NCBI RefSeq assembly: GCF_001677475.2
Contig: NZ_CP015229.1
DNA: 64,000 bases
Strand: one strand, 5' to 3'
Source: Escherichia coli
GTDB taxonomy: Bacteria > Pseudomonadota > Gammaproteobacteria > Enterobacterales > Enterobacteriaceae
Shown: positions 3,834 to 47,931 of the stretch, piece by piece
How the letters are laid out: the number at the start of each line of letters is the position of its first letter
How positions within the stretch are numbered: the stretch's first letter is position 1
Notes under the pieces: generated by a model
What the model was told of the DNA's origin: nothing
Databases searched by the model: none
What the model saw: only the letters and a program-made list of their open reading frames with translations
Position numbers and translations under genes: made by a program

Positions 3834-4193
3834 ATGGTATCCGCACTCATCACCGTCGCCGTTATCGCCTGGTGCGCGCAACTGGCCTTAGGCGGTTGGC
3901 AAATTTCTCGTTTTAACCGTGCCTTCGACACGCTATGTCAGCAAGGGCGGGTTGGCGTGGGCCGTTCCAGCGGGCGCTTTAAACCGCGGGTCGTGGTCGC
4001 CATCGCCCTGGACGATCAGCAACGCATCGTCGACACCTTGTTTATGAAAGGACTGACCGTCTTCGCCCGACCGCAAAAAATTCCCGCAATTACCGGTATG
4101 CATGCGGGTGATTTACAGCCCGATGTGATCTTTCCCCATGATCCACTATCACAGAATGCTCTATCATTGGCGCTTAAACTGAAACGTGGATAA
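3834..4193 (+). CDS. gutM: Glucitol operon activator
   Basis: 119 aa ORF with N-terminal hydrophobic segment, between srlD and srlR. Confidence 0.9.
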   Translation: MVSALITVAVIAWCAQLALGGWQISRFNRAFDTLCQQGRVGVGRSSGRFKPRVVVAIALDDQQRIVDTLFMKGLTVFARPQKIPAITGMHAGDLQPDVIFPHDPLSQNALSLALKLKRG

Positions 4194-30088: not shown

Positions 30089-30161
30089 TAAAATTCTAAA
30101 TCTCCTATAGTTAGTCAATGACCTTTTGCACCGCTTTGCGGTGCTTTCCTGGAAGAACAAA

Positions 30162-32240
30162 ATGTCATATACACCGATGAGTGATCTCGGACAGCAAGGG
30201 TTGTTCGACATCACTCGGACACTATTGCAGCAGCCCGATCTGGCCTCGCTGTGTGAGGCTCTTTCGCAACTGGTAAAGCGTTCTGCGCTCGCCGACAACG
30301 CGGCTATTGTGTTGTGGCAAGCGCAGACTCAACGTGCGTCTTATTACGCGTCGCGTGAAAAAGACACCCCCATTAAATATGAAGACGAAACTGTTCTGGC
30401 ACACGGTCCGGTACGCAGCATTTTGTCGCGCCCTGATACGCTGCATTGCAGTTACGAAGAATTTTGTGAAACCTGGCCGCAGCTGGCCGCAGGTGGGCTA
30501 TACCCAAAATTTGCTCACTATTGTCTGATGCCACTGGCGGCGGAAGGGCATATTTTTGGTGGCTGTGAATTTATTCGTTATGACGATCGCCCCTGGAGCG
30601 AAAAAGAGTTCAATCGTCTGCAAACATTTACGCAGATCGTTTCTGTCGTCACCGAACAAATCCAGAGTCGCGTCGTTAACAATGTTGACTATGAGTTGTT
30701 ATGCCGGGAACGCGATAACTTCCGCATCCTGGTCGCCATCACCAACGCGGTGCTTTCCCGCCTGGATATGGACGAACTGGTCAGCGAAGTCGCCAAAGAA
30801 ATCCATTACTATTTCGACATTGATGATATCAGCATCGTCTTACGCAGCCACCGTAAAAACAAACTCAACATCTACTCCACTCACTATCTTGATAAACAGC
30901 ATCCCGCCCACGAACAGAGCGAAGTCGATGAAGCCGGAACCCTCACCGAACGCGTCTTCAAAAGTAAAGAGATGCTGTTGATTAATCTCCACGAGCGGGA
31001 CGATTTAGCCCCCTATGAACGTATGTTGTTCGACACTTGGGGCAACCAGATTCAAACCTTGTGCCTGTTACCGCTGATGTCTGGCGACACCATGCTGGGC
31101 GTGCTAAAACTGGCGCAATGCGAAGAGAAAGTATTTACCACTACCAATCTGAATTTACTGCGCCAGATTGCCGAACGTGTGGCAATCGCTGTCGATAACG
31201 CCCTCGCCTATCAGGAAATTCATCGTCTGAAAGAACGGCTGGTTGATGAAAACCTCGCCCTGACCGAGCAGCTCAACAATGTTGATAGTGAATTTGGCGA
31301 GATTATTGGCCGCAGCGAAGCCATGTACAGCGTACTTAAACAAGTTGAAATGGTGGCGCAAAGTGACAGTACCGTTCTGATCCTCGGTGAAACTGGCACG
31401 GGTAAAGAGCTGATTGCCCGTGCTATCCATAATCTCAGTGGGCGTAATAATCGCCGCATGGTCAAAATGAACTGCGCGGCGATGCCTGCCGGATTGCTGG
31501 AGAGTGATCTGTTTGGTCATGAGCGTGGGGCTTTTACCGGTGCCAGCGCCCAGCGCATTGGTCGTTTTGAACTGGCGGATAAAAGCTCCCTGTTCCTCGA
31601 CGAAGTGGGCGATATGCCACTGGAGTTACAGCCGAAGTTGCTGCGTGTATTACAGGAACAGGAGTTTGAACGTCTTGGCAGCAACAAAATCATTCAGACG
31701 GACGTACGTCTAATCGCCGCAACTAACCGCGATCTGAAAAAAATGGTCGCCGACCGAGAGTTCCGTAGCGATCTCTATTACCGCCTGAACGTATTCCCGA
31801 TTCACCTGCCGCCACTACGCGAGCGTCCGGAAGATATTCCGCTGCTGGCGAAAGCCTTTACCTTCAAAATTGCCCGCCGACTGGGGCGCAATATCGACAG
31901 CATTCCTGCCGAGACACTGCGCATATTGAGCAACATGGAATGGCCGGGTAACGTACGCGAACTGGAAAATGTCATTGAGCGCGCGGTATTGCTAACACGC
32001 GGCAACGTGCTGCAGCTGTCATTGCCAGATATTGCTTTACCGGAGCCTGAAACGCCGCCTGCCGCAACGGTTGTCGCTCAGGAGGGCGAAGATGAATATC
32101 AGTTGATTGTTCGCGTGCTGAAAGAAACAAACGGCGTGGTTGCCGGGCCTAAAGGCGCTGCGCAACGTCTGGGGCTGAAACGCACGACTCTGCTGTCACG
32201 GATGAAGCGACTGGGAATTGATAAATCGGCATTGATTTAA
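30162..32240 (+). CDS. fhlA: Formate hydrogenlyase transcriptional activator, sigma54-dependent
   Basis: Start at ATG 30162 (MSYTPMSDLGQQGLFD) gives 692 aa; two GAF-like N-terminal domains, AAA+ core with GETGTGKE and GAFTGA, C-terminal HTH. Confidence 0.95.
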   Translation: MSYTPMSDLGQQGLFDITRTLLQQPDLASLCEALSQLVKRSALADNAAIVLWQAQTQRASYYASREKDTPIKYEDETVLAHGPVRSILSRPDTLHCSYEEFCETWPQLAAGGLYPKFAHYCLMPLAAEGHIFGGCEFIRYDDRPWSEKEFNRLQTFTQIVSVVTEQIQSRVVNNVDYELLCRERDNFRILVAITNAVLSRLDMDELVSEVAKEIHYYFDIDDISIVLRSHRKNKLNIYSTHYLDKQHPAHEQSEVDEAGTLTERVFKSKEMLLINLHERDDLAPYERMLFDTWGNQIQTLCLLPLMSGDTMLGVLKLAQCEEKVFTTTNLNLLRQIAERVAIAVDNALAYQEIHRLKERLVDENLALTEQLNNVDSEFGEIIGRSEAMYSVLKQVEMVAQSDSTVLILGETGTGKELIARAIHNLSGRNNRRMVKMNCAAMPAGLLESDLFGHERGAFTGASAQRIGRFELADKSSLFLDEVGDMPLELQPKLLRVLQEQEFERLGSNKIIQTDVRLIAATNRDLKKMVADREFRSDLYYRLNVFPIHLPPLRERPEDIPLLAKAFTFKIARRLGRNIDSIPAETLRILSNMEWPGNVRELENVIERAVLLTRGNVLQLSLPDIALPEPETPPAATVVAQEGEDEYQLIVRVLKETNGVVAGPKGAAQRLGLKRTTLLSRMKRLGIDKSALI

Positions 32241-32284
32241 CAGATGTGGTTATACTCGATCAACATTCAATGAAAGGAGGCAGT

Positions 32285-32713
32285 ATGGCAGTTTCAGCAA
32301 GAAATCAATTAACCGGAACAGTTAGCGCAGTAGCAATGGGCGCGGTGAATGACGAAGTAGAACTGACGCTGGCAGGTGGTGCAAAGCTGGTGGCAATTGT
32401 GACTCACAGCAGCCAGCAGGCTCTGGGTCTGGCGAAAGGGAAAGAAGCGATTGCCCTGATTAAAGCCCCGTGGGTAACGCTGGCAACGGAAGACTGTGGA
32501 CTGAAATTCTCTGCTCGCAACCAGTTTGCTGGCAGCGTGTCGACAATCACCGAAGGCGCAGTGAACGCCACTGTCCATATCAAAACGGATGCGGGTTTTG
32601 AAATTGTGGCAGTGGTAACAAATGAAAGTCAGGATGAAATGAAACTCACCACTGGCTCACGCGTTATTGCATTGATCAAAGCATCAGCCATCCTGATTGC
32701 CACCAAAGCGTAA
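32285..32713 (+). CDS. Tandem Mop-domain (TOBE) molybdate/tungstate-binding protein (molbindin)
   Basis: ATG at 32285 preceded by GGAGG at 32275-32279; 142 aa made of two ~70 aa repeats each starting with the Mop signature SARNQ(L/F)xGxV. The track start at 32246 is an upstream extension. Confidence 0.8.
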   Translation: MAVSARNQLTGTVSAVAMGAVNDEVELTLAGGAKLVAIVTHSSQQALGLAKGKEAIALIKAPWVTLATEDCGLKFSARNQFAGSVSTITEGAVNATVHIKTDAGFEIVAVVTNESQDEMKLTTGSRVIALIKASAILIATKA

Positions 32714-32724
32714 GCGCCTTATTT

Positions 32725-32760
32725 GCCGGAGAGTATGGCTCTCCGGCAGATTTATTTCTT
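32725..32760. terminator. Bidirectional rho-independent terminator between mop-like gene (+) and ygbA (-)
   Basis: 9 bp stem gccggagag / ctctccggc with 5 nt loop, followed by agatttatttcttt. Confidence 0.7.
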
Positions 32761-33096
32761 TGGACGATATTTTTCTGGCAACTCCGGCACCGGACGCTTG
32801 TCATCGATGAGATGACGCACAGTTAAGATCGGGTGACGCCACAGCATTCTCGGCCCGGCCCAACGCATAATCTGTTTCATCTCTTCACGCTTTGCAGGCT
32901 GGTAACAGTGCACCGGACACTGCTTACAGGCTGGTTTCTCTTCGCCGAACACACATTTATCCAGCCGCTTTTGCGCGTAAGTAAACAACGCCTCATAATG
33001 CTCCGGCTCCGCTGACGCCTGCGGGCATTTCGCTTGATAAAGATCGATCATTTTTTTAATCGTCAGTTTTTCACGAGAGATACGCTTGCCGGACAT
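32752..33096 (-). CDS. ygbA: Cys-rich small protein YgbA
   Basis: 114 aa ORF with CxxC pairs, located immediately upstream of and divergent from mutS as in E. coli. Confidence 0.8.
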   Translation of the reverse strand: MSGKRISREKLTIKKMIDLYQAKCPQASAEPEHYEALFTYAQKRLDKCVFGEEKPACKQCPVHCYQPAKREEMKQIMRWAGPRMLWRHPILTVRHLIDDKRPVPELPEKYRPKK

Positions 33097-33382
33097 GCTG
33101 CCTCCATACTCTTAAGGTGTATTTATATTACAACTTAATTTGAAAGGGGACTATGGCTCTGAAGGAGGAGGTTTATTCAACCGACGCAATTTTGCGTACT
33201 TGCTTCATAATCATCACGCAAAAGCTGCAAAACAGCATCTTTCCCGGAATCACCATCAAGAACTCGCCGTTCGCTTCTTCCCCTGAAATGATTAACTCCG
33301 GTATCATGTGCGCCTTATGTGATTACAACGAAAATAAAAACCATCACACCCCATTTAATATCAGGGAACCGGACATAACCCC

Positions 33383-35944
33383 ATGAGTGCAATAGAAAAT
33401 TTCGACGCCCATACGCCCATGATGCAGCAGTATCTCAAGCTGAAAGCCCAGCATCCCGAGATCCTGCTGTTTTACCGGATGGGTGATTTTTATGAACTGT
33501 TTTATGACGACGCAAAACGTGCGTCGCAACTGCTGGATATTTCACTGACCAAACGCGGTGCTTCAGCGGGAGAGCCGATCCCGATGGCGGGGATTCCCTA
33601 CCATGCAGTGGAAAACTACCTCGCCAAACTGGTGAATCAGGGCGAGTCCGTTGCCATCTGCGAACAAATTGGCGATCCGGCGACCAGCAAAGGTCCGGTT
33701 GAGCGCAAAGTTGTGCGTATCGTTACGCCTGGCACCATCAGCGATGAAGCCCTGTTGCAGGAGCGTCAGGACAACCTGTTGGCGGCTATCTGGCAGGACA
33801 GTAAAGGTTTCGGCTACGCGACGCTGGATATTAGTTCCGGTCGTTTTCGCCTGAGCGAACCGGCTGACCGGGAAACGATGGCGGCAGAACTGCAACGCAC
33901 TAATCCTGCGGAACTGCTGTATGCAGAAGATTTTGCTGAAATGTCGTTAATTGAAGGTCGTCGCGGTCTGCGCCGTCGCCCGCTGTGGGAGTTTGAAATC
34001 GACACCGCGCGCCAGCAGTTAAACCTGCAATTTGGCACTCGTGATCTGGTCGGTTTTGGCGTCGAGAACGCGCCGCGCGGACTTTGTGCTGCCGGTTGTC
34101 TGTTGCAGTATGCGAAAGATACCCAACGCACGACCCTGCCGCATATTCGTTCTATCACCATGGAACGTGAGCAGGACAGCATCATTATGGATGCCGCGAC
34201 GCGTCGTAACCTGGAAATTACCCAGAACCTGGCGGGCGGTGCGGAAAACACGCTGGCTTCAGTGCTCGACTGCACTGTAACGCCGATGGGTAGTCGTATG
34301 CTGAAACGCTGGCTGCATATGCCAGTGCGCGATACCCGCGTGTTGCTTGAGCGCCAGCAAACTATTGGCGCATTGCAGGATTTCACCGCCGAGCTGCAGC
34401 CGGTACTGCGTCAGGTCGGCGACCTGGAACGTATTCTGGCACGTCTGGCTTTACGAACAGCTCGCCCACGCGATCTGGCCCGTATGCGTCACGCTTTCCA
34501 GCAACTGCCGGAGTTGCGTGCGCAGTTAGAAACTGTCGATAGCGCTCCGGTGCAGGCGCTACGTGAGAAGATGGGCGAGTTTGCCGAGCTGCGCGATCTG
34601 CTGGAGCGAGCAATCATCGACACACCGCCAGTGCTGGTACGCGACGGTGGTGTTATCGCATCAGGCTATAACGAAGAGCTGGATGAGTGGCGCGCGCTGG
34701 CTGACGGCGCGACCGATTATCTGGAGCGTCTGGAAGTCCGCGAGCGTGAACGTACCGGCCTGGACACGCTGAAAGTTGGCTTTAATGCGGTGCACGGCTA
34801 CTACATTCAGATCAGCCGTGGGCAAAGCCACCTGGCACCGATTAACTACATGCGCCGCCAGACGCTGAAAAACGCCGAACGCTACATTATTCCAGAGCTA
34901 AAAGAGTACGAAGATAAAGTTCTCACCTCAAAAGGCAAAGCACTGGCACTGGAAAAACAGCTTTATGAAGAGCTGTTCGACTTGCTGTTGCCGCATCTGG
35001 AAGCGTTGCAACAGAGCGCGAGCGCGCTGGCGGAACTCGACGTGCTGGTTAACCTGGCGGAACGGGCCTATACCCTGAACTACACCTGCCCGACCTTTAT
35101 TGATAAACCGGGTATTCGCATCACCGAAGGCCGCCATCCGGTGGTTGAACAGGTACTGAACGAGCCATTTATCGCCAACCCGCTGAACCTGTCGCCGCAG
35201 CGTCGCATGTTGATCATTACCGGTCCGAATATGGGCGGTAAAAGTACCTATATGCGCCAGACCGCACTGATTGCGCTGATGGCGTATATCGGCAGCTATG
35301 TACCGGCACAAAAAGTCGAGATTGGACCTATCGATCGCATCTTTACCCGCGTAGGGGCAGCGGATGATCTGGCATCCGGGCGTTCAACCTTTATGGTGGA
35401 GATGACCGAAACCGCTAATATTCTGCATAACGCCACCGAGTACAGCCTGGTGTTGATGGATGAGATTGGGCGCGGGACGTCCACTTACGATGGCCTGTCG
35501 CTGGCGTGGGCGTGCGCGGAAAATCTGGCGAATAAGATTAAAGCGTTGACGCTGTTTGCCACCCACTATTTCGAGCTGACCCAGTTACCGGAGAAAATGG
35601 AAGGCGTCGCCAACGTGCATCTCGATGCACTGGAGCACGGCGACACCATTGCCTTTATGCACAGCGTGCAGGATGGCGCGGCGAGCAAAAGCTACGGCCT
35701 GGCGGTTGCAGCTCTGGCAGGCGTGCCAAAAGAGGTTATTAAGCGCGCACGGCAAAAACTGCGTGAGCTGGAAAGCATTTCGCCGAACGCCGCCGCTACG
35801 CAAGTGGATGGTACGCAAATGTCTTTGCTGTCCGTACCAGAAGAAACTTCGCCTGCGGTCGAGGCACTGGAAAACCTCGACCCGGATTCACTGACTCCGC
35901 GTCAGGCGCTGGAATGGATTTATCGCTTGAAGAGTCTGGTGTAA
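33383..35944 (+). CDS. mutS: DNA mismatch repair protein MutS
   Basis: 853 aa intact ORF with Walker [10 protein letters not shown] and the N-terminal mismatch-binding GDFYELF motif. Confidence 0.97.
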
Positions 35945-41391: not shown

Positions 41392-42756
41392 ATGTCCACA
41401 ATTACATTGTTATGCATTGCGTTAGCTGGCGTAATCATGCTGTTGCTGCTGGTCATCAAGGCAAAGGTTCAACCATTCGTTGCTCTGCTCCTCGTCAGCC
41501 TGTTAGTCGCACTTGCGGCGGGTATACCGGCGGGCGAAGTGGGTAAAGTGATGGTCGCCGGGATGGGCGGTGTGCTTGGTTCCGTCACTATTATTATTGG
41601 TCTGGGCGCTATGCTGGGGCGTATGATCGAACACTCTGGTGGTGCAGAGTCACTGGCTAATTATTTCAGTCGCAAGTTAGGTGACAAACGAACTATCGCT
41701 GCGCTGACTCTGGCAGCGTTCTTCCTCGGTATTCCCGTCTTCTTTGATGTCGGCTTTATTATTCTTGCGCCAATCATTTACGGTTTTGCCAAGGTTGCCA
41801 AAATATCGCCACTCAAATTTGGCCTGCCTGTCGCTGGGATCATGCTCACTGTTCACGTGGCGGTACCGCCGCATCCAGGCCCTGTCGCCGCAGCGGGGTT
41901 ACTCCACGCAGACATCGGCTGGCTAACCATCATCGGTATTGCGATTTCTATTCCCGTAGGGATTGTTGGCTACTTTGCAGCGAAAATAATCAATAAGCGC
42001 CAATATGCGATGTCAGTAGAAGTACTGGAACAGATGCAACTGGCTCCGGCCAGTGAGGAAGGCGCGACAAAATTAAGCGATAAAATAAATCCACCGGGCG
42101 TCGCGCTGGTCACCTCGCTAATTGTTATTCCTATCGCGATTATCATGGCGGGTACGGTTTCTGCAACACTGATGCCGCCTTCGCATCCCCTGCTTGGTAC
42201 GCTACAGCTGATCGGCTCACCAATGGTAGCTCTAATGATTGCGCTGGTGCTGGCATTCTGGTTATTGGCTTTACGTCGCGGCTGGAGCTTACAACACACC
42301 AGCGACATTATGGGCTCAGCGCTTCCTACTGCGGCGGTAGTGATTTTGGTTACTGGTGCTGGAGGGGTATTTGGCAAAGTGCTGGTGGAATCGGGCGTCG
42401 GCAAAGCCCTTGCCAACATGTTACAAATGATTGACCTGCCTCTGTTACCAGCCGCATTTATTATTTCACTGGCGCTGCGTGCATCGCAGGGGTCAGCAAC
42501 CGTAGCAATACTGACAACCGGCGGGTTACTCTCAGAAGCGGTGATGAGATTGAATCCGATTCAGTGCGTATTGGTGACGCTGGCAGCCTGCTTTGGTGGG
42601 CTTGGTGCGTCACATATTAATGACTCAGGGTTCTGGATTGTGACCAAATATCTGGGATTGTCGGTAGCAGACGGTCTGAAAACCTGGACAGTGTTAACGA
42701 CCATTCTTGGTTTTACCGGATTCTTAATCACCTGGTGCGTATGGGCGGTGATTTAA
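41392..42756 (+). CDS. ygbN: GntP-family permease
   Basis: 454 aa polytopic membrane ORF. Confidence 0.9.
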   Translation: MSTITLLCIALAGVIMLLLLVIKAKVQPFVALLLVSLLVALAAGIPAGEVGKVMVAGMGGVLGSVTIIIGLGAMLGRMIEHSGGAESLANYFSRKLGDKRTIAALTLAAFFLGIPVFFDVGFIILAPIIYGFAKVAKISPLKFGLPVAGIMLTVHVAVPPHPGPVAAAGLLHADIGWLTIIGIAISIPVGIVGYFAAKIINKRQYAMSVEVLEQMQLAPASEEGATKLSDKINPPGVALVTSLIVIPIAIIMAGTVSATLMPPSHPLLGTLQLIGSPMVALMIALVLAFWLLALRRGWSLQHTSDIMGSALPTAAVVILVTGAGGVFGKVLVESGVGKALANMLQMIDLPLLPAAFIISLALRASQGSATVAILTTGGLLSEAVMRLNPIQCVLVTLAACFGGLGASHINDSGFWIVTKYLGLSVADGLKTWTVLTTILGFTGFLITWCVWAVI

Positions 42757-42764
42757 CCTTAATA

Positions 42765-42798
42765 AAAAGGTCCGATGAGCATCGGACCTTTTATTTAG
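42765..42798. terminator. Bidirectional rho-independent terminator (ygbN + / ecdD-like -)
   Basis: aaaaag gtccgat gagc atcggac cttttattt: hairpin flanked by an A-run and a T-run. Confidence 0.75.
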
Positions 42799-43031
42799 CG
42801 CTTATCTGCCGCCAGCAGCGGCGGGATGCTCGGCACCATTGGCGCGTCATCAATATCTTTTTGTGTCATACGGAACGCTTGTGGGTAATGTTCACGGCTG
42901 GTGCGGCGTAGCGGTTCGGTATCGCGCCAGGTATAAAGGCAATGCTGGCACTGATATACCGTCCAGACATCTTTCACCGGCGATTTCGCCATCACTTCAA
43001 TCTGTTCATCGGCACAACGTGGACAAATCAT
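42795..43031 (-). CDS. ecdD: Small zinc-ribbon subunit of a UbiD-type phenolic acid decarboxylase (BsdD/VdcD-like)
   Basis: 78 aa ORF with CPRC ... CQHC pairs, immediately downstream of the UbiD-like gene on the same strand. Confidence 0.7.
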   Translation of the reverse strand: MICPRCADEQIEVMAKSPVKDVWTVYQCQHCLYTWRDTEPLRRTSREHYPQAFRMTQKDIDDAPMVPSIPPLLAADKR

Positions 43032-43041
43032 CTTCTTCTCC

Positions 43042-44469
43042 TTATTGACGCGCGGCCAGCATAGCGGTCAGTTTTTCAGCCCAGGCTTTGGTTTCCGGCA
43101 AATCCACCACCGGCTGGCTGTAGTGACCACGGTTGTCCGGGGCGACAGGCGTGGTGGCGTCGATAATCAGCTTGTCGGTGATGCCTGCCGGGCTTGAGCC
43201 AGGGTCGAGTTCCAGCACGGACATATTTGGTAGTTGCACCAAGTCGCCCGCCGGGTTCACTTTCGAGGAGAGCGCCCACATCACCTGCGGCAGGTTGAAC
43301 GGGTCAACGTCTTCATCGACCATAATCACCATCTTCACGTAGCCCAGACCGTGCGGCGTGGTCATCGCACGCAGGCCCACCGCGCGGGCAAAGCCGCCGT
43401 AGCGTTTTTTGGTGGAGATAATCGCCAGCAGGCCGTGGGTGTACATGGCGTTTACCGCCTGCACTTCCGGGAACTCGGCTTTCAGTTGTTGATACAGCGG
43501 TACGCAGGTGGCTGGCCCCATCAGGTAGTCGATTTCGGTCCACGGCATGCCGAGGTACAGCGATTCGAAAATCGGCCTGGTGCGGTAAGAGACTTTATCG
43601 ATGCGCACCACGGTCATGTTACGCCCGCCGGAGTAGTGTCCGGTAAACTCACCGAACGGCCCTTCGATTTCGCGTTTACGGCTTTCGATGACCCCTTCGA
43701 GGATCACTTCTGAACCCCACGGCACATCAAAACCGGTCAGCGGGGCGGTAGCGATCGGGTATGGGCTTTCACGCAGCGCGCCTGCCATTTCATACTCAGA
43801 CTGATCGTATTTCAGTGGCGTAGCCCCCATCAGCGTGATGATCGGATCGTTACCGAGCGTGATCGCAATCGGTAGATCTTCACCGCGCTCTTCTGCTTTA
43901 TGTAGATGCAGGGCGATATCGTGCATCGGCACCGGTTGTAGGCCGAGCTTTCGCTTGCCCTTCACTTCCATGCGGTAGATGCCGACGTTCTGCTTGCCGA
44001 AGTTATCCGGGTCGAGCGGATCGCGGGAAACCACGCAGGCTTTGTCGAGATAGAAACCGCCATCGCCATCGTTTAAACGAAACAGCGGCAGGATATCGAA
44101 CAGGTTAATCTCGTCGCTATCAACGGTGTTCTGCGCCCAGGCAGGATTGGCGCGGCGCTCCGGGGCAATCGGGAAGTTATCCCAGCGGCGAATAAACTCA
44201 TCAATCTGTTTTTTAACCGGAGTGTTTGCCGGCAGGCCGAGGGAAATCGCATGGTTCTGCCAGGAACCGATGGTATTCATCGCCACGCGGGCATCGGTAA
44301 AGCCGCGAATATTGTCAAACCACAGCGCCGGTGCGCCGTCGCCGATACGCCCGGTGGCGTTAGCTGCTGCTGCCAGATCCGGCTCAGCGTTCACCTCTTC
44401 GCTGATTTTCAGTAACTGGCCGTGGTCATCAAGCGCCTGTAAAAAGCTGCGTAAATCATCAAATGCCAT
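43042..44469 (-). CDS. ecdC: UbiD-family (prFMN-dependent) aromatic acid decarboxylase, subunit C type
   Basis: 475 aa ORF with UbiD-like core (GPFGEFTGHYSG); ATG at 44467-44469 overlaps the upstream gene's stop. Confidence 0.85.
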   Translation of the reverse strand: MAFDDLRSFLQALDDHGQLLKISEEVNAEPDLAAAANATGRIGDGAPALWFDNIRGFTDARVAMNTIGSWQNHAISLGLPANTPVKKQIDEFIRRWDNFPIAPERRANPAWAQNTVDSDEINLFDILPLFRLNDGDGGFYLDKACVVSRDPLDPDNFGKQNVGIYRMEVKGKRKLGLQPVPMHDIALHLHKAEERGEDLPIAITLGNDPIITLMGATPLKYDQSEYEMAGALRESPYPIATAPLTGFDVPWGSEVILEGVIESRKREIEGPFGEFTGHYSGGRNMTVVRIDKVSYRTRPIFESLYLGMPWTEIDYLMGPATCVPLYQQLKAEFPEVQAVNAMYTHGLLAIISTKKRYGGFARAVGLRAMTTPHGLGYVKMVIMVDEDVDPFNLPQVMWALSSKVNPAGDLVQLPNMSVLELDPGSSPAGITDKLIIDATTPVAPDNRGHYSQPVVDLPETKAWAEKLTAMLAARQ

Positions 44470-45062
44470 TATTTATTCTCCTGAGAAAAATTCCGGGCCT
44501 GCGGCAATCCTTGCCAGCGCCTGGCGTGGGGATGTTCGAGGCCAAATTGATCCAGCACGCGGGCTACCACATGGTGGACAATGTCATCTACCGTTTCGGG
44601 ATGGTTATAAAAGGCAGGCATCGGCGGCACCATCGCCACGCCCATGCGTGAAAGTGCGAGCATATTTTCGAGATGGATGGTGCTAAGCGGCATTTCACGC
44701 GGCACCAGCACCAGTTTGCGGCCTTCTTTGAGCACGACGTCCGCCGCGCGCCCTACCAGGCCATCGGCGTAACCAGCGCGGATACCGGAGAGCGTTTTCA
44801 TACTGCACGGAATAACGATCATGCCGTCGGTACGAAAAGAACCGGATGAGATGATCGCCGCCTGATCCGCCGGGTTATGGCTGAAGTCTGCGAGGGCAGC
44901 AACATCGCGAGCGCTGTAAGGCGTTTCCAGTTCAATGGTGGTTTTCGCCCACTTCGACATCACCAGATGAGTCTCGACATTCGGCATCTCCCGCAGCGCT
45001 TGCAGTAATGCCACACCAAGAGGCGCACCGGTAGCCCCTGTCATCCCGACGATCAGTTTCAT
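44469..45062 (-). CDS. ecdB: UbiX-family flavin prenyltransferase (decarboxylase subunit B type)
   Basis: 197 aa ORF starting MKLIVGMTGATGAPLGVALLQAL, flavoprotein fold like UbiX/Pad1. Confidence 0.85.
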   Translation of the reverse strand: MKLIVGMTGATGAPLGVALLQALREMPNVETHLVMSKWAKTTIELETPYSARDVAALADFSHNPADQAAIISSGSFRTDGMIVIPCSMKTLSGIRAGYADGLVGRAADVVLKEGRKLVLVPREMPLSTIHLENMLALSRMGVAMVPPMPAFYNHPETVDDIVHHVVARVLDQFGLEHPHARRWQGLPQARNFSQENK

Positions 45063-45078
45063 TGCTTATTCTCTTAAT

Positions 45079-45092
45079 TGTTCGTATACGAA
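45079..45092. promoter_or_regulatory. Perfect 14 bp palindrome, candidate MarR-type operator in the divergent ecdB/marR-like promoter region
   Basis: gttcgtatacgaac read directly, 16 nt upstream of the ecdB start codon. Confidence 0.55.
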
Positions 45093-45208
45093 CGTTATTA
45101 TTAACATACTCCTTCATTTCCACAGCGGCAAGGATTGAAAAGTAACAACATCTTCTTCGTCACTAAAAAACCGCTATGATAGCGACAGAGAATTAGCCCG
45201 GAGTTTAC

Positions 45209-45616
45209 ATGGCGTTACGAAATAAAGCGTTCCATCAGTTACGACAGCTTTTTCAGCAGCACACGGCTCGCTGGCAGCACGAGTTACCTGACCTGACCAA
45301 ACCACAGTATGCGGTGATGCGCGCCATTGCTGATAAGCCTGGTATCGAACAGGTGGCACTGATAGAAGCAGCAGTCAGCACCAAAGCAACGTTGGCAGAA
45401 ATGTTGGCAAGAATGGAGAATCGTGGCTTAGTCAGACGTGAACATGATGCCGCTGACAAGCGGCGTCGCTTTGTCTGGCTGACTGCCGAAGGAGAAAAGG
45501 TACTTGCTGCGGCGATACCGATTGGTGACAGTGTGGATGAGGAATTTTTGGGGCGTTTGAGTGCAGAAGAGAAGGAGCTGTTTATGCAGCTGGTGCGCAA
45601 GATGATGAGCACATAG
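45209..45616 (+). CDS. MarR-family transcriptional regulator
   Basis: 135 aa ORF with ATG at 45209 after GGAG; winged-helix region LTKPQYAVMRAIADKPGIEQVALIEAAVSTKATLAEMLARMENRGLVRR; divergent from the decarboxylase genes. Confidence 0.8.
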   Translation: MALRNKAFHQLRQLFQQHTARWQHELPDLTKPQYAVMRAIADKPGIEQVALIEAAVSTKATLAEMLARMENRGLVRREHDAADKRRRFVWLTAEGEKVLAAAIPIGDSVDEEFLGRLSAEEKELFMQLVRKMMST

Positions 45617-45625
45617 AATGCTGAT

Positions 45626-45660
45626 TGCCGGGTAGGACGCTGACGTGTCTTATCCAGGCG
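45626..45660. repeat. REP-like element
   Basis: gccgggtaggacgctgacgtgtcttatccaggc between the marR-like gene and the rpoS terminator. Confidence 0.6.
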
Positions 45661-45684
45661 ACAAAAACACATGCATCCCAAACA

Positions 45685-45720
45685 AAAGAAAAAAGGCCAG
45701 CCTCGCTTGAGACTGGCCTT
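45685..45720 (-). terminator. rpoS rho-independent terminator
   Basis: Minus strand reads ggccag-tctcaagcgagg-ctggcc followed by a T-run (A-run on plus at 45685-45694). Confidence 0.8.
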
Positions 45721-45736
45721 TCTGACAGATGCTTAC

Positions 45737-46729
45737 TTACTCGCGGAACAGCGCTTCGATATTCAGCCCCTGCGTTTGCAGGATTTCGCGCAAACGGCGC
45801 AGGCCTTCAACCTGAATCTGGCGAACACGTTCACGGGTGAGGCCAATTTCACGACCTACATCTTCCAGTGTTGCCGCTTCGTACCCCAGCAAACCGAATC
45901 GACGTGCCAGTACTTCACGCTGTTTGGCGTTCAGCTCGAACAGCCATTTGACGATGCTCTGCTTCATATCGTCATCTTGCGTGGTATCTTCCGGACCGTT
46001 CTCTTTTTCATCGGCCAGGATGTCCAGCAACGCTTTTTCGGAATCACCACCCAGCGGGGTGTCTACCGAGGTAATGCGCTCGTTAAGACGAAGCATACGG
46101 CTGACGTCATCAACTGGCTTATCCAGTTGCTCTGCGATCTCTTCCGCACTTGGTTCATGGTCCAGCTTATGGGACAACTCACGTGCGGTTCGCAGGTAAA
46201 CGTTCAGCTCCTTTACGATGTGAATCGGCAAACGAATAGTACGGGTTTGGTTCATAATCGCCCGTTCAATCGTCTGGCGAATCCACCAGGTTGCGTATGT
46301 TGAGAAGCGGAAACCACGTTCCGGGTCAAACTTCTCTACCGCGCGGATCAGCCCCAGGTTGCCCTCTTCGATCAGGTCCAGCAACGCCAGACCACGATTG
46401 CCATAACGGCGGGCAATTTTTACCACCAGACGCAAGTTACTCTCGATCATCCGGCGGCGGGAGGCAACATCTCCACGCAGTGCGCGACGCGCAAAATAAA
46501 CTTCTTCTTCGGCCGTTAACAGTGGTGAATAACCAATCTCACCAAGGTAAAGCTGAGTCGCGTCCAACACACGCTGTGTGGCTCCCTGCGATAACAGTTC
46601 CTCTTCGGCCAAATCGTTATCACTGGGTTCCTCTTCTACTAAGGCCTTTTCGTCAAAAACCTCAACTCCGTTCTCATCAAATTCCGCATCTTCATTTAAA
46701 TCATGAACTTTCAGCGTATTCTGACTCAT
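45737..46729 (-). CDS. rpoS: RNA polymerase sigma factor sigma-S (sigma-38)
   Basis: Start at ATG 46727-46729 ([21 protein letters not shown]) gives 330 aa, intact, with Glu at codon 33 (no internal stop). The track start at 46765 is an extension. Confidence 0.97.
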
Positions 46730-46791
46730 AAGGTGGCTCCTACCCGTGATCCCTTGACGGAACATTTAAGCAAAAGCCTGGTTCCGCCGAT

Positions 46792-47931
46792 TTATCGCTG
46801 CGGCAAATAACGCAGCGGGTTTACGGATTTCCCCTTGTAACGAATTTCAAAATGCAAGCGTGTTGAACTGGTTCCGGTGCTACCCATGGTTGCTATTTTT
46901 TGCCCCGCCTTCACTTCTTGTTGTTCCCGGACCAGCATTGTGTCGTTATGGGCGTAGGCACTCAGGTAATCATCATTATGTTTGATGATAATCAGATTAC
47001 CGTAGCCGCGCAGCGCGTTACCGGCATAAACAACGCGGCCATCTGCGGTCGCGATAATTGCCTGTCCTTTGCTGCCTGCGATATCAATCCCCTTGTTGCC
47101 CCCCTCAGAAGCGCCAAAGGTTTCGATCACTTTACCCTCAGTCGGCCAGCGCCAGGTGGAGATAGGCGTACTGGTTGATGTACTGCTGACAGTCGGCTCG
47201 GTTGTGCTTGCTGTTGGTACCGTTACAGGCGCTGTGACCGTGGTCGCAGTTGGCTTGTTGTTCGGCAACATTTTGTTAGCACTCTGTTCACCCGAAGACT
47301 CAGAATACGTAATTGTCGGTTGCGAAGCAACAGCAACGGTGGAATTTTGTGCAGGCTTGATCACAACTCCTTGCTCTGCTGCGTCGGCCTGGGTAATGGC
47401 ATTTCCGCCAGTGATTGGAGTACCGGAAGCATTCCCCACCTGTAAGGTCTGACCGACGTTCAGCGCGTATGGTGCCTGAATATTGTTGCGCTGAGCAAGG
47501 TCACGGAAATCGTTGCCAGTAATCCAGGCGATATAGAAAAGTGTGTCGCCTTTTTTCACTGTATAGGTACTGCCGCTATAACTGCCTTTCGGAATGTTCC
47601 CATACTGACGGTTATAGACGATGCGTCCGTTTTCCATCTGTACCGGCTGCTGAGCTACTGGCTGCACCGGCTGGATTTGCGGTTGTTGAGTGGCCTGAAT
47701 TTGTGGCTGCTGTACCGGCTGAATTTGCGGTTGCTGAGTTGTAGACGTCGTCCCCATTTTCGGCGGCGGCGTAATCAACATACCAGAATTGGTATTTGCA
47801 GGCGCATTGCCATTAACGGAGCTGACCGGGGCCGGTGGATTTGAAGTGTCAGAACAGCCTGCCAGCCATAGCGAAACCAGTGACAAAGCCGCAATGCGGC
47901 GAACGGTGAATTTTGGGCTTCCCGCGCTCAT
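46792..47931 (-). CDS. nlpD: Murein hydrolase activator lipoprotein NlpD (LysM + M23 peptidase-like)
   Basis: 379 aa ORF with lipobox LAGCS, Gln/Pro-rich repeats, LysM and C-terminal LytM domain. Confidence 0.95.

Follow-up and report, generated by a model that had tools for sequence, protein, structure and literature searches.

The closest described relative of the protein studied here is ModG of A. vinelandii, whose structures (PDB 1h9j, 1h9k and 1h9m) are reportedly those of Delarbre et al. 2001. ModG and the E. coli protein belong to the same length class (142 aa here, about 141-145 aa for ModG), both consist of two tandem Mop domains and nothing else, and the SARN, GAVN, T-x-x-S and KA motifs are found in both repeats of the E. 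coli protein. The two genes differ in their surroundings. A. vinelandii modG lies with modEABC and is reported to be ModE-regulated, whereas the E. coli gene comes after hyp-fhlA and no ModE box can be recognised at it; neither the modEABC association nor the ModE-dependent expression of A. vinelandii modG was thus found for it. This missing mod context does not exclude membership in the ModG family, since it is a contextual and not a structural feature. Moreover, the E. coli host is enteric and non-diazotrophic, and there is therefore no nitrogenase connection.

The di-Mop domain of the ModE regulators (PDB 1h9r, 1h9s, 1o7l and 1b9m) shares the tandem Mop fold with the E. coli protein (TM 0.88-0.90, 34-36% identity), and its first-repeat ligand positions (SARNQ, T, S and KA) align with those of the latter. 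However, the N-terminal DNA-binding domain of ModE is absent from the E. coli protein, and the second repeat of ModE carries NADNQ and FNADS where the E. coli protein has SARNQ and IKAS. Single-domain molbindins were also compared, namely, C. pasteurianum MopII (1gug), S. ovata Mop (1fr3) and E. limosum Tub (9beb). They have in common with the E. coli protein a domain of about 70 residues and the type-1 and type-2 ligand residues, and each repeat of the E. coli protein is about 40% identical to Tub. Unlike the E. coli protein, which fuses two domains, these are hexamers of single-domain chains; with two fused domains per chain, a trimer would therefore equal the hexamer assembly of Mop and Tub. 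Finally, c3292 of E. coli CFT073 is the same gene as the one described here, with no difference of substance.

Organization of the fhlA-ygbA interval

The window, i.e., the whole stretch of 64,000 nucleotides of E. coli chromosome that was analysed, contains hyc (minus strand), hypABCDE, fhlA, an ORF that we call mop, ygbA (minus strand), mutS, pphB, ygbI-N, vdcCB-like genes, rpoS and nlpD. The FhlA product has 692 aa from ATG 30162 and matches the NCBIfam FhlA equivalog NF011958 with 1546 bits over residues 1-692/692. The features of the locus are as follows.

30162..32240, plus strand: fhlA, formate hydrogenlyase sigma-54 activator, last gene of the hyp-fhlA unit
32238-32240, plus strand: fhlA stop codon TAA, read from the sequence
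32241..32284, plus strand: fhlA-mop spacer of 44 nt, holding the TATACT box and the Shine-Dalgarno sequence AAAGGAGG
32251-32256, plus strand: conserved TATACT box, candidate -10, from the alignment
32273-32280, plus strand: Shine-Dalgarno sequence AAAGGAGG, 4 nt before ATG 32285
32285..32713, plus strand: mop CDS, 142 aa, ModG-type di-Mop molbindin, stop codon TAA at 32711-32713
32294..32482, plus strand: Mop/TOBE repeat 1, residues 4-66 (Pfam coordinates)
32510..32695, plus strand: Mop/TOBE repeat 2, residues 76-137 (Pfam coordinates)
32721..32761, plus strand: intrinsic terminator, 14-bp GC-rich stem at 32721-32751, then T-tract TTATTTCTTT
32752..33096, minus strand: ygbA, convergent neighbour, 114-aa allele (NCBIfam NF007713 and NF007716)

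The original prediction had described a 142-aa ORF with two Mop/TOBE repeats between fhlA and ygbA, with its own ribosome-binding site and its own strong terminator, and each of these elements was recovered. Indeed, fhlA ends at 32240 and ygbA lies convergent downstream, the ORF matches Pfam and TIGR00638, AAAGGAGG stands 4 nt before the ATG with 44 nt separating this ATG from fhlA, and the 14-bp stem followed by TTATTTCTTT folds with -23.1 kcal/mol. Some records place the start at an in-frame GTG further upstream (32246), which would lengthen the protein by 13 residues to 155 aa. In other genera, the DNA for these 13 residues is either deleted or poorly conserved, and it is at ATG 32285 that homology to ModG and Mop begins.

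The mop gene encodes a ModG-type molbindin

The profile search for TOBE/Mop domains that had been proposed for this ORF returned two TOBE domains with Pfam (PF03459), at residues 4-66 (E 1.6e-17) and 76-137 (E 6.2e-16), and two Mop stretches with NCBIfam TIGR00638 (142 bits, for a cut-off of 55). No other significant domain was found in the 142-aa protein by the Pfam search. The best PDB sequence match was A. vinelandii ModG 1h9j (E 5e-33), with query residues 1-140 aligned to residues 4-143 without gaps at 68/140 = 48.6% identity, and the next match after ModG was the ModE di-Mop domain (E 1e-15). An AlphaFold2 monomer model built on 72 stand-alone homologues had a mean pLDDT of 96.8; compared by Foldseek, it superposed on ModG 1h9j with a TM of 0.95 and an rmsd of 1.3 Å and on the ModE di-Mop domain with a TM of 0.88-0.90. 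Relatives of the protein numbered 2233 representatives at E 1e-3 or better. The gene product is thus a ModG-type (di-Mop) molbindin, a known member of a well-populated family.

Three other identities were considered and rejected. The protein is not a ModE, because it has no DNA-binding domain: it begins at the first Mop domain, whereas ModE regulators have about 260 aa with a winged helix ahead of the di-Mop part. Correspondingly, no N-terminal winged-helix domain was present, and the ModE equivalog NF007957 scored 88 bits against a cut-off of 369, matching at profile positions 124-261 of 263 only. The ABC-transporter ATPases ModC and WtpC matched only through the C-terminal 60-70 positions of their profiles, far under the cut-offs. 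Single-domain Mop and Tub proteins matched one half of the query only, whereas two domains per chain are present here.

Conservation of the oxyanion-contact residues

In Tub, the type-1 ligands are provided by the backbone of A20, V21 and N22 and the type-2 ligands by S4, R6, K60 and A61 of one subunit together with S40 of the neighbouring subunit, and these sites are said to resemble those of ModG, Mop and ModE (PMC11980592). Tub residues 2-67 align ungapped to residues 74-139 of the mop product, with an offset of 72, and the contacts predicted from this offset for repeat 2 are therefore S76, R78, A92-V93-N94, T112, K132 and A133. For repeat 1, the internal repeat and ModG alignments predict contacts at S4, R6, A20-V21-N22, T40, K60 and A61. 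Among the 72 stand-alone di-Mop homologues, S4, R6, T40, K60, S76, R78, V93, T112, K132 and A133 were invariant or at least 90% conserved, and A20, V21, N22, A61, A92 and N94 were not among the columns conserved to this degree. Strict side-chain conservation is not needed at the type-1 sites, since it is the backbone that makes the contacts. Judged by these residues, both repeats look ligand-competent, as in ModG.

Distribution in E. coli and earlier records of the gene

With the gene alone as query, mop was found in 1892 of the 5426 complete E. coli genomes searched, with one chromosomal copy each, full-length in 1889, and the exact 142-aa protein was found on at least 1000 contigs. The flanks of the locus were present in 5419 of the 5426 genomes, and the presence/absence survey that the original prediction had called for shows the fhlA-ygbA interval with the gene in 1889 of these flank-positive genomes. 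Individual carriers include ST131, Nissle 1917, CFT073 and IAI39; K-12, O157/O55:H7, O45:H2 and O104:H4 are examples of non-carriers. The earlier suspicion that K-12 lacks the gene was correct, as the TAA of the K-12-type fhlA runs directly into a hairpin and then into ygbA. Relative to the window, this K-12-type allele lacks about 473 bp, made up of the spacer and mop; its hairpin is homologous to the terminator that follows mop, with a few substitutions between the two. The ygbA allele also differs: that associated with the mop haplotype has 345 nt (114 aa), compared to 354 nt (117 aa) for the K-12 type, and an 8-nt difference accounts for the 117 versus 114 aa of YgbA.

This size polymorphism has been published. 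Ewers et al. 2014 reported that the fhlA-mutS amplicon measures 1673 bp in CFT073 and 1208 bp in MG1655 and EDL933 (PMC4209514). Their c3292 primer TAACCGGAACAGTTAGCGC matches window positions 32310-32328 exactly, and the published fhlA and mutS primers, located at 31757 and 33430, would amplify 1674 bp of the window, versus 1673 bp for CFT073. On these sequence matches, the mop gene of the window is the orthologue of CFT073 c3292. In that study c3292 served as a PCR size marker only, and its function was not studied there (PMC4209514). RefSeq names the gene "TOBE domain-containing protein" or "molybdopterin-binding protein" (e.g., WP_000301062.1, strain VCSW7), and the strain A16 copy, which bears the former name, is 100% identical in DNA to the window gene. 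Thus, both the gene and its presence/absence polymorphism are already known, being annotated in about 1900 complete E. coli genomes and published.

Some of the names in circulation are wrong. Lerminiaux et al. label the gene "transcriptional regulator modE" (PMC7232297), and a database name is "molybdate transport system regulatory protein"; both are misnomers, because the protein has no N-terminal DNA-binding domain, NF007957 stays below its cut-off and the second repeat is ligand-competent. The database name "transporter" is equally unfounded, since the ModC and WtpC models match only by their C-terminal positions and under their cut-offs. A literature search (ModG or molbindin in E. coli, c3292, Mop in Klebsiella or Enterobacteriaceae) found no functional work on the gene and two papers that use it as a marker.

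Expression signals around mop

The stem of the terminator starts 8 bases past the mop stop codon, and its free energy of -23.1 kcal/mol corresponds to z = -5.7, with 0 of 200 shuffles folding as well. On the minus strand the same hairpin has -19.4 kcal/mol and is followed by an A-rich tail, and the T-tract TTATTTCTTT runs into the 3' end of the convergent ygbA, covering its stop and last codons. A terminator scan of positions 31800-32720 found no terminator-like site between fhlA and mop. With no terminator after fhlA, a spacer of 44 nt and a strong terminator after mop, read-through from upstream is expected, and the gene is most likely co-transcribed with hyp-fhlA, as far as the arrangement of these signals tells. 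Such read-through would occur under anaerobic, formate- and FhlA-induced conditions.

A further spacer element is a box of the form GGYTATAMW, some 30 nt ahead of the start codon. It is shared by Escherichia, Citrobacter, Kluyvera and Pluralibacter, is present as well in the fhlA-unlinked Salmonella and Edwardsiella copies and is absent in Raoultella, Klebsiella and Kosakonia. A simple sigma-70 scan of positions 31800-33400 found no full promoter, and no properly spaced -35 was seen for the TATACT-like box, TTGATT lying 13 nt away. A sigma-70 promoter of its own is thus unsupported by the scan and stays hypothetical, despite the conserved box; given its conservation pattern, the TATACT box (32251-32256) may be the -10 of a weak promoter proper to mop.

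Two regulatory elements were looked for in the spacer, and neither was supported. The ModE operator consensus is of the type TATAT-N7-TAYAT, and comparison with this consensus, made without a weight matrix, revealed no conserved ModE-type palindrome in the 44-nt spacer across the multi-genus alignment. The candidate GTTATAC-N6/7-ACATT resembles one half of the modA operator; its second half is not conserved in Citrobacter, Kluyvera, Pluralibacter and Salmonella. The other candidate was an RNA structure in which the box GUUAUACU would pair with AGUAUGGC over the start codon. This structure was rejected, since it folded no better than shuffles (z = -0.3) and the GUUAUACU-AGUAUGGC pairing is not kept in Raoultella or Pantoea. 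The whole window gave no Rfam match at gathering thresholds.

Selection, synteny and origin of mop

Compared to the Citrobacter and Salmonella orthologues, the mop gene showed a dN/dS of 0.056-0.066 and a dS of 0.9-1.3, with synonymous sites near saturation; compared to the Raoultella and Pantoea orthologues, synonymous sites were saturated and pN was 0.09-0.11. The GGAGG of the Shine-Dalgarno sequence was kept in nearly all of 38 aligned sequences (at least 80% at every column). By this pattern of substitution, the ORF is a real, intact gene under strong purifying selection and not a chance ORF.

We then compared the surroundings of mop in a scan with one genome per species, which yielded 49 loci, 41 of them in Enterobacteriaceae, the context being established by tblastn with FhlA, HypE, YgbA, MutS and SitA. 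The following contexts were found.

fhlA immediately upstream of mop: 36 of 41 Enterobacteriaceae loci, in Escherichia, Citrobacter, Pseudocitrobacter, Raoultella, Klebsiella, Kluyvera, Enterobacter, Pluralibacter, Yokenella, Lelliottia and Kosakonia
hypE directly upstream of mop: 3 loci, two in Phytobacter and one in Kosakonia sp. S29
Neither fhlA nor hypE upstream of mop: 2 of 41 Enterobacteriaceae loci
mop orthologue at unrelated sites: Serratia, Cedecea, Edwardsiella and Pantoea

E. albertii is among the species with fhlA immediately upstream. The order in Citrobacter is identical to that of the window (hypABCDE-fhlA-mop-ygbA), and that in Raoultella is fhlA-mop-sitABCD-ygbA. At the three hypE-adjacent loci, all that is left is some 11 codons that look like the FhlA C terminus, and Phytobacter thus keeps mop though fhlA has been deleted at the site. 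Between E. coli and Citrobacter, the mop gene had a pS of 0.53 and a pN of 0.050, and hypD, hypE, fhlA and ygbA had a pS of 0.63-0.73 and a pN of 0.03-0.07; the GC content of mop (51%) matches that of the same four genes. Salmonella copies are rare, lie far from fhlA and sit on islets beside IS21 and IS66 remnants. Their homology runs from the stop codon back to -61 and so takes in the 44-nt spacer plus some 17 nt at the 3' end of fhlA; since they keep these sequences, they derive from an fhlA-linked copy and not the reverse. Because fhlA is upstream at 36 of 41 loci and because both divergence and GC content match those of the neighbours, comparison of the loci indicates that mop is ancestral at this site in Enterobacteriaceae and that it was not inserted here but has been lost elsewhere. 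The E. coli lineages to which K-12 and O157 belong would have lost the gene by clean removal of about 473 bp.

Other readings of the gene and of its history fit these data poorly. That the gene is dispensable in most E. coli, K-12 included, would suit a non-functional, untranslated relic, but we give this idea practically no credence, given a dN/dS of about 0.06 with saturated synonymous sites, a full-length frame in 1889 of 1892 E. coli carriers, a Shine-Dalgarno sequence conserved in nearly all genera aligned and conserved ligand residues. It also seems very improbable that K-12 represents the original state and that mop is a recently acquired islet. The fhlA-mutS interval is a documented hot spot of gain and loss, which holds SPI-1 in Salmonella (PMC7232297), the Salmonella copies of mop lie on islets next to IS21 and IS66 remnants, and the gene is patchy in E. 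coli, being found in 35% of genomes. However, the same position is filled in 36 of 41 Enterobacteriaceae loci, including those of E. albertii, Citrobacter, Klebsiella, Kluyvera and Kosakonia, mop resembles the flanking core genes in GC content and in its divergence at synonymous and non-synonymous sites, and the junctions carry neither repeats nor mobile-element genes. The Salmonella copies, moreover, carry the spacer and the fhlA 3' end and so stem from an fhlA-linked copy. Horizontal insertion at this locus was rejected on the grounds of synteny and divergence.

Proposed function of the mop product

We consider it likely that the mop product is a cytoplasmic ModG-type buffer or store of molybdate and tungstate. 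By analogy with A. vinelandii ModG, we infer that it would form a trimer (equal to a hexamer of Mop domains) able to bind up to eight molybdate or tungstate oxyanions. On the same analogy, two of the eight would sit on the three-fold axis, held by the GAVN backbone loops, and six would sit at domain interfaces, held by the SARN, T-x-x-S and KA motifs. The protein would in this way buffer or store intracellular molybdate for molybdoenzymes and for molybdenum-cofactor synthesis. The sequence does not discriminate between a preference for molybdate and one for tungstate; a gut-microbiome survey assigns many ModG-type proteins to tungsten users (PMC11980592).

The neighbours of mop are hyp-fhlA and ygbA and not modABC or modE. 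Any role of it would be auxiliary, since 65% of E. coli, including K-12 with its fully functional formate hydrogenlyase, are without the gene. That mop supports the Mo-dependent FDH-H, and with it formate hydrogenlyase, is plausible from the genomic context, because of the ancient hyp-fhlA linkage. The conserved hyp-fhlA-mop synteny across Enterobacteriaceae lends circumstantial support to this link with formate hydrogenlyase, which we infer. A general role is favoured over a hydrogenlyase-specific one, since the gene is dispensable in K-12, has orthologues away from fhlA and is retained where fhlA has been deleted.

The tight and ancient linkage to the gene of the formate hydrogenlyase activator could also be taken to mean that the mop product is a regulatory partner, a relative of ModE that lacks the DNA-binding domain, interacting in a molybdate-dependent manner with ModE, FhlA or a cofactor-synthesis protein and thereby tuning hyc/hyp or mod, or handing molybdate over. 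K-12 hyc transcription responds to molybdate through ModE, and Mop of Rhodobacter capsulatus is said to interact with the ModE-like MopB, reportedly in work by Wiethaus et al. 2009 (J Bacteriol). The protein is 34-36% identical to the ModE di-Mop domain, which mediates a molybdate-dependent conformational change, and resembles it in fold (TM 0.89). In both sequence and fold, however, it is closer to ModG than to ModE, it has the full ligand set in both repeats, as in storage proteins, whereas the second repeat of ModE is degenerate, and the gene survives fhlA deletion and occurs unlinked to fhlA. We therefore regard a regulatory partner as unlikely. A related proposal, that the di-Mop protein is a trans-acting molybdate sensor or donor dedicated to formate hydrogenlyase and not a passive store, is similarly doubtful; molybdate might be handed to the FDH-H cofactor pathway, for example, or the activity of FhlA or ModE might be modulated.

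The protein might also bind primarily tungstate ("TudG" in PMC11980592). It would then serve as a tungsten store, or it would sequester tungstate and thereby keep molybdoenzymes, e.g., FDH-H, from being mis-metallated. Sites of the Mop family bind tungstate about as well as molybdate, Tub having similar affinity for both (PMC11980592), and among gut genomes ModG-type architectures are commoner in predicted tungsten users (PMC11980592). PDB tungstate complexes exist for both the ModE di-Mop domain (1h9r) and MopII (1gug). However, neither tupABC nor tungsten-enzyme genes are found near the locus in the window. Molybdate import in E. coli and its relatives proceeds by ModABC, and these bacteria are not known to use tungsten physiologically in their main molybdoenzymes. 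A primarily tungstate-binding protein thus seems quite improbable to us, although a tungstate-specific role and a buffer of molybdate and tungstate are not mutually exclusive. The reading as a buffer or store is the one that we retain.

Significance

The practical value of these observations is modest, and the finding is correct but ordinary. What the analysis adds is a precise assignment to the ModG type, in place of the wrong labels "modE" and "transporter", together with evidence for an ancestral gene lost from K-12 and the extent of the hyp-fhlA-mop synteny. For annotation, "ModG-type molbindin" is the appropriate name of the gene, and "modE", "molybdate transport system regulatory protein" and "transporter" should be dropped.

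If the protein were a dedicated sensor or donor, K-12 would have lost a Mo-dependent layer of hydrogen-metabolism control, a layer still kept by most Enterobacteriaceae and by B2/ExPEC E. coli. As it stands, K-12, the standard model for formate hydrogenlyase and molybdoenzymes, is without an ancestral enterobacterial Mo/W-binding protein that is encoded at the end of the hyp-fhlA unit, and about one third of E. coli, including ST131, CFT073 and Nissle 1917, keep the gene. According to published work, molybdate acquisition is important for gut and urinary-tract colonisation by Klebsiella pneumoniae and Proteus mirabilis. The clean presence and absence alleles of E. coli constitute an easy natural knock-out/knock-in pair, and the mop gene could account for differences between strains in their sensitivity to tungstate or in molybdoenzyme activity when molybdate is low.

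mop copies outside the fhlA-ygbA context

We examined the rare copies of the mop gene (c3292 of CFT073) found in Salmonella enterica. In the two loci L004 and L010 (5940-6429 in both), mop lies away from fhlA, on islets that also hold a fimbrial usher operon and fragments of IS21 or IS66. The 44-nt spacer is still kept upstream of mop in both loci, and the Salmonella copies also retain about 17 nt resembling the 3' end of fhlA, with 15 of 20 bases identical to those of Citrobacter. On these sequence remnants, the Salmonella mop gene appears to be a relocated copy that was once linked to fhlA.

A different arrangement was observed in two Phytobacter loci (L047 and L052) and in Kosakonia sp. S29 (L059), where mop directly follows hypE after a gap of about 132 nt (positions 3861-4003). 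The hypE-mop spacer of these three loci encodes '...KKMGMDKQAMT*', which resembles the FhlA C terminus, '...MKRLGIDKSALI*'. Judging from this vestige, a deletion seems to have removed fhlA here and left mop and ygbA in place.

Sequences flanking mop

The longest fhlA open reading frame of the window encodes 704 aa from a TTG at 30126. The 692-aa product, which begins at the ATG at 30162, and the FhlA model match over their full lengths. Both RefSeq/PGAP (annotations in L001-L003, L001 being a K-12-type E. coli locus without mop) and NCBIfam NF011958 call this gene 'flhA / FlhA'. The symbol flhA, used there in place of fhlA, is that of a flagellar export gene.

Alignment of the mop upstream regions revealed a GGYTATAMW box about 30 nt 5' of the mop start codon (window 32251-32256), which is kept in several genera and is also present in mop copies unlinked to fhlA. 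The box was absent from Raoultella, Klebsiella and Kosakonia in this alignment. It is a candidate -10 element. The E. coli box is able to pair with the mop start-codon region, in a fold that was not significant. Across all 64 kb of the window (1-64000), no hit to an Rfam family attained the gathering score.

Downstream of mop, two ygbA alleles were found among the annotated loci examined (window 32752-32770 versus L001 1678-1700). A YgbA of 114 aa, ending in ...PKK, accompanies mop, as it does in Citrobacter and Raoultella, whereas K-12-type genomes without mop carry a 117-aa YgbA ending in ...PKKPHE. The hairpin common to both haplotypes shows paired substitutions (GCCGGAGAG...CTCTCCGGC versus GCCGGACAG...CTGTCCGGC). 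One further feature was recorded beyond ygbA:

33173-33307, minus strand: 44-codon ORF between ygbA and mutS

It corresponds in position to a 135-nt RefSeq 'hypothetical protein' (WP_000611926.1, WP_000611932.1), which measures 180 nt in strain RMDEC465.

Distribution of mop in E. coli

Of the 1892 E. coli carrier genomes, three had a mop match that covered less than 80% of the gene; in strain FDAARGOS_1285 (H60, NZ_CP070152.1 1490899-1491024), only the first 126 bases were matched. This suggests that mop is occasionally disrupted or truncated in carriers.

In the ygbN-nlpD region, in-silico PCR with the primers of Ewers 2014 yielded 4547 bp for o454-nlpD (window 42404-46950) and 734 bp for o454-yclC; vdcC/vdcB-type decarboxylase genes lie downstream of ygbN. 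This region is 'pattern IV' of Ewers 2014 (PMC4209514). With primers from the same study, the window, which contains c3292, gave a fhlA-mutS product of 1674 bp (31757-33430). The text of PMC4209514, in contrast, assigns this fhlA-mutS product exclusively to pattern III (B2) strains, and its Table 1 also gives a c3292-mutS amplicon for E2348/69. Since c3292 occurs here in a pattern IV window, and given the E2348/69 amplicon, the gene is not confined to B2 or pattern III.
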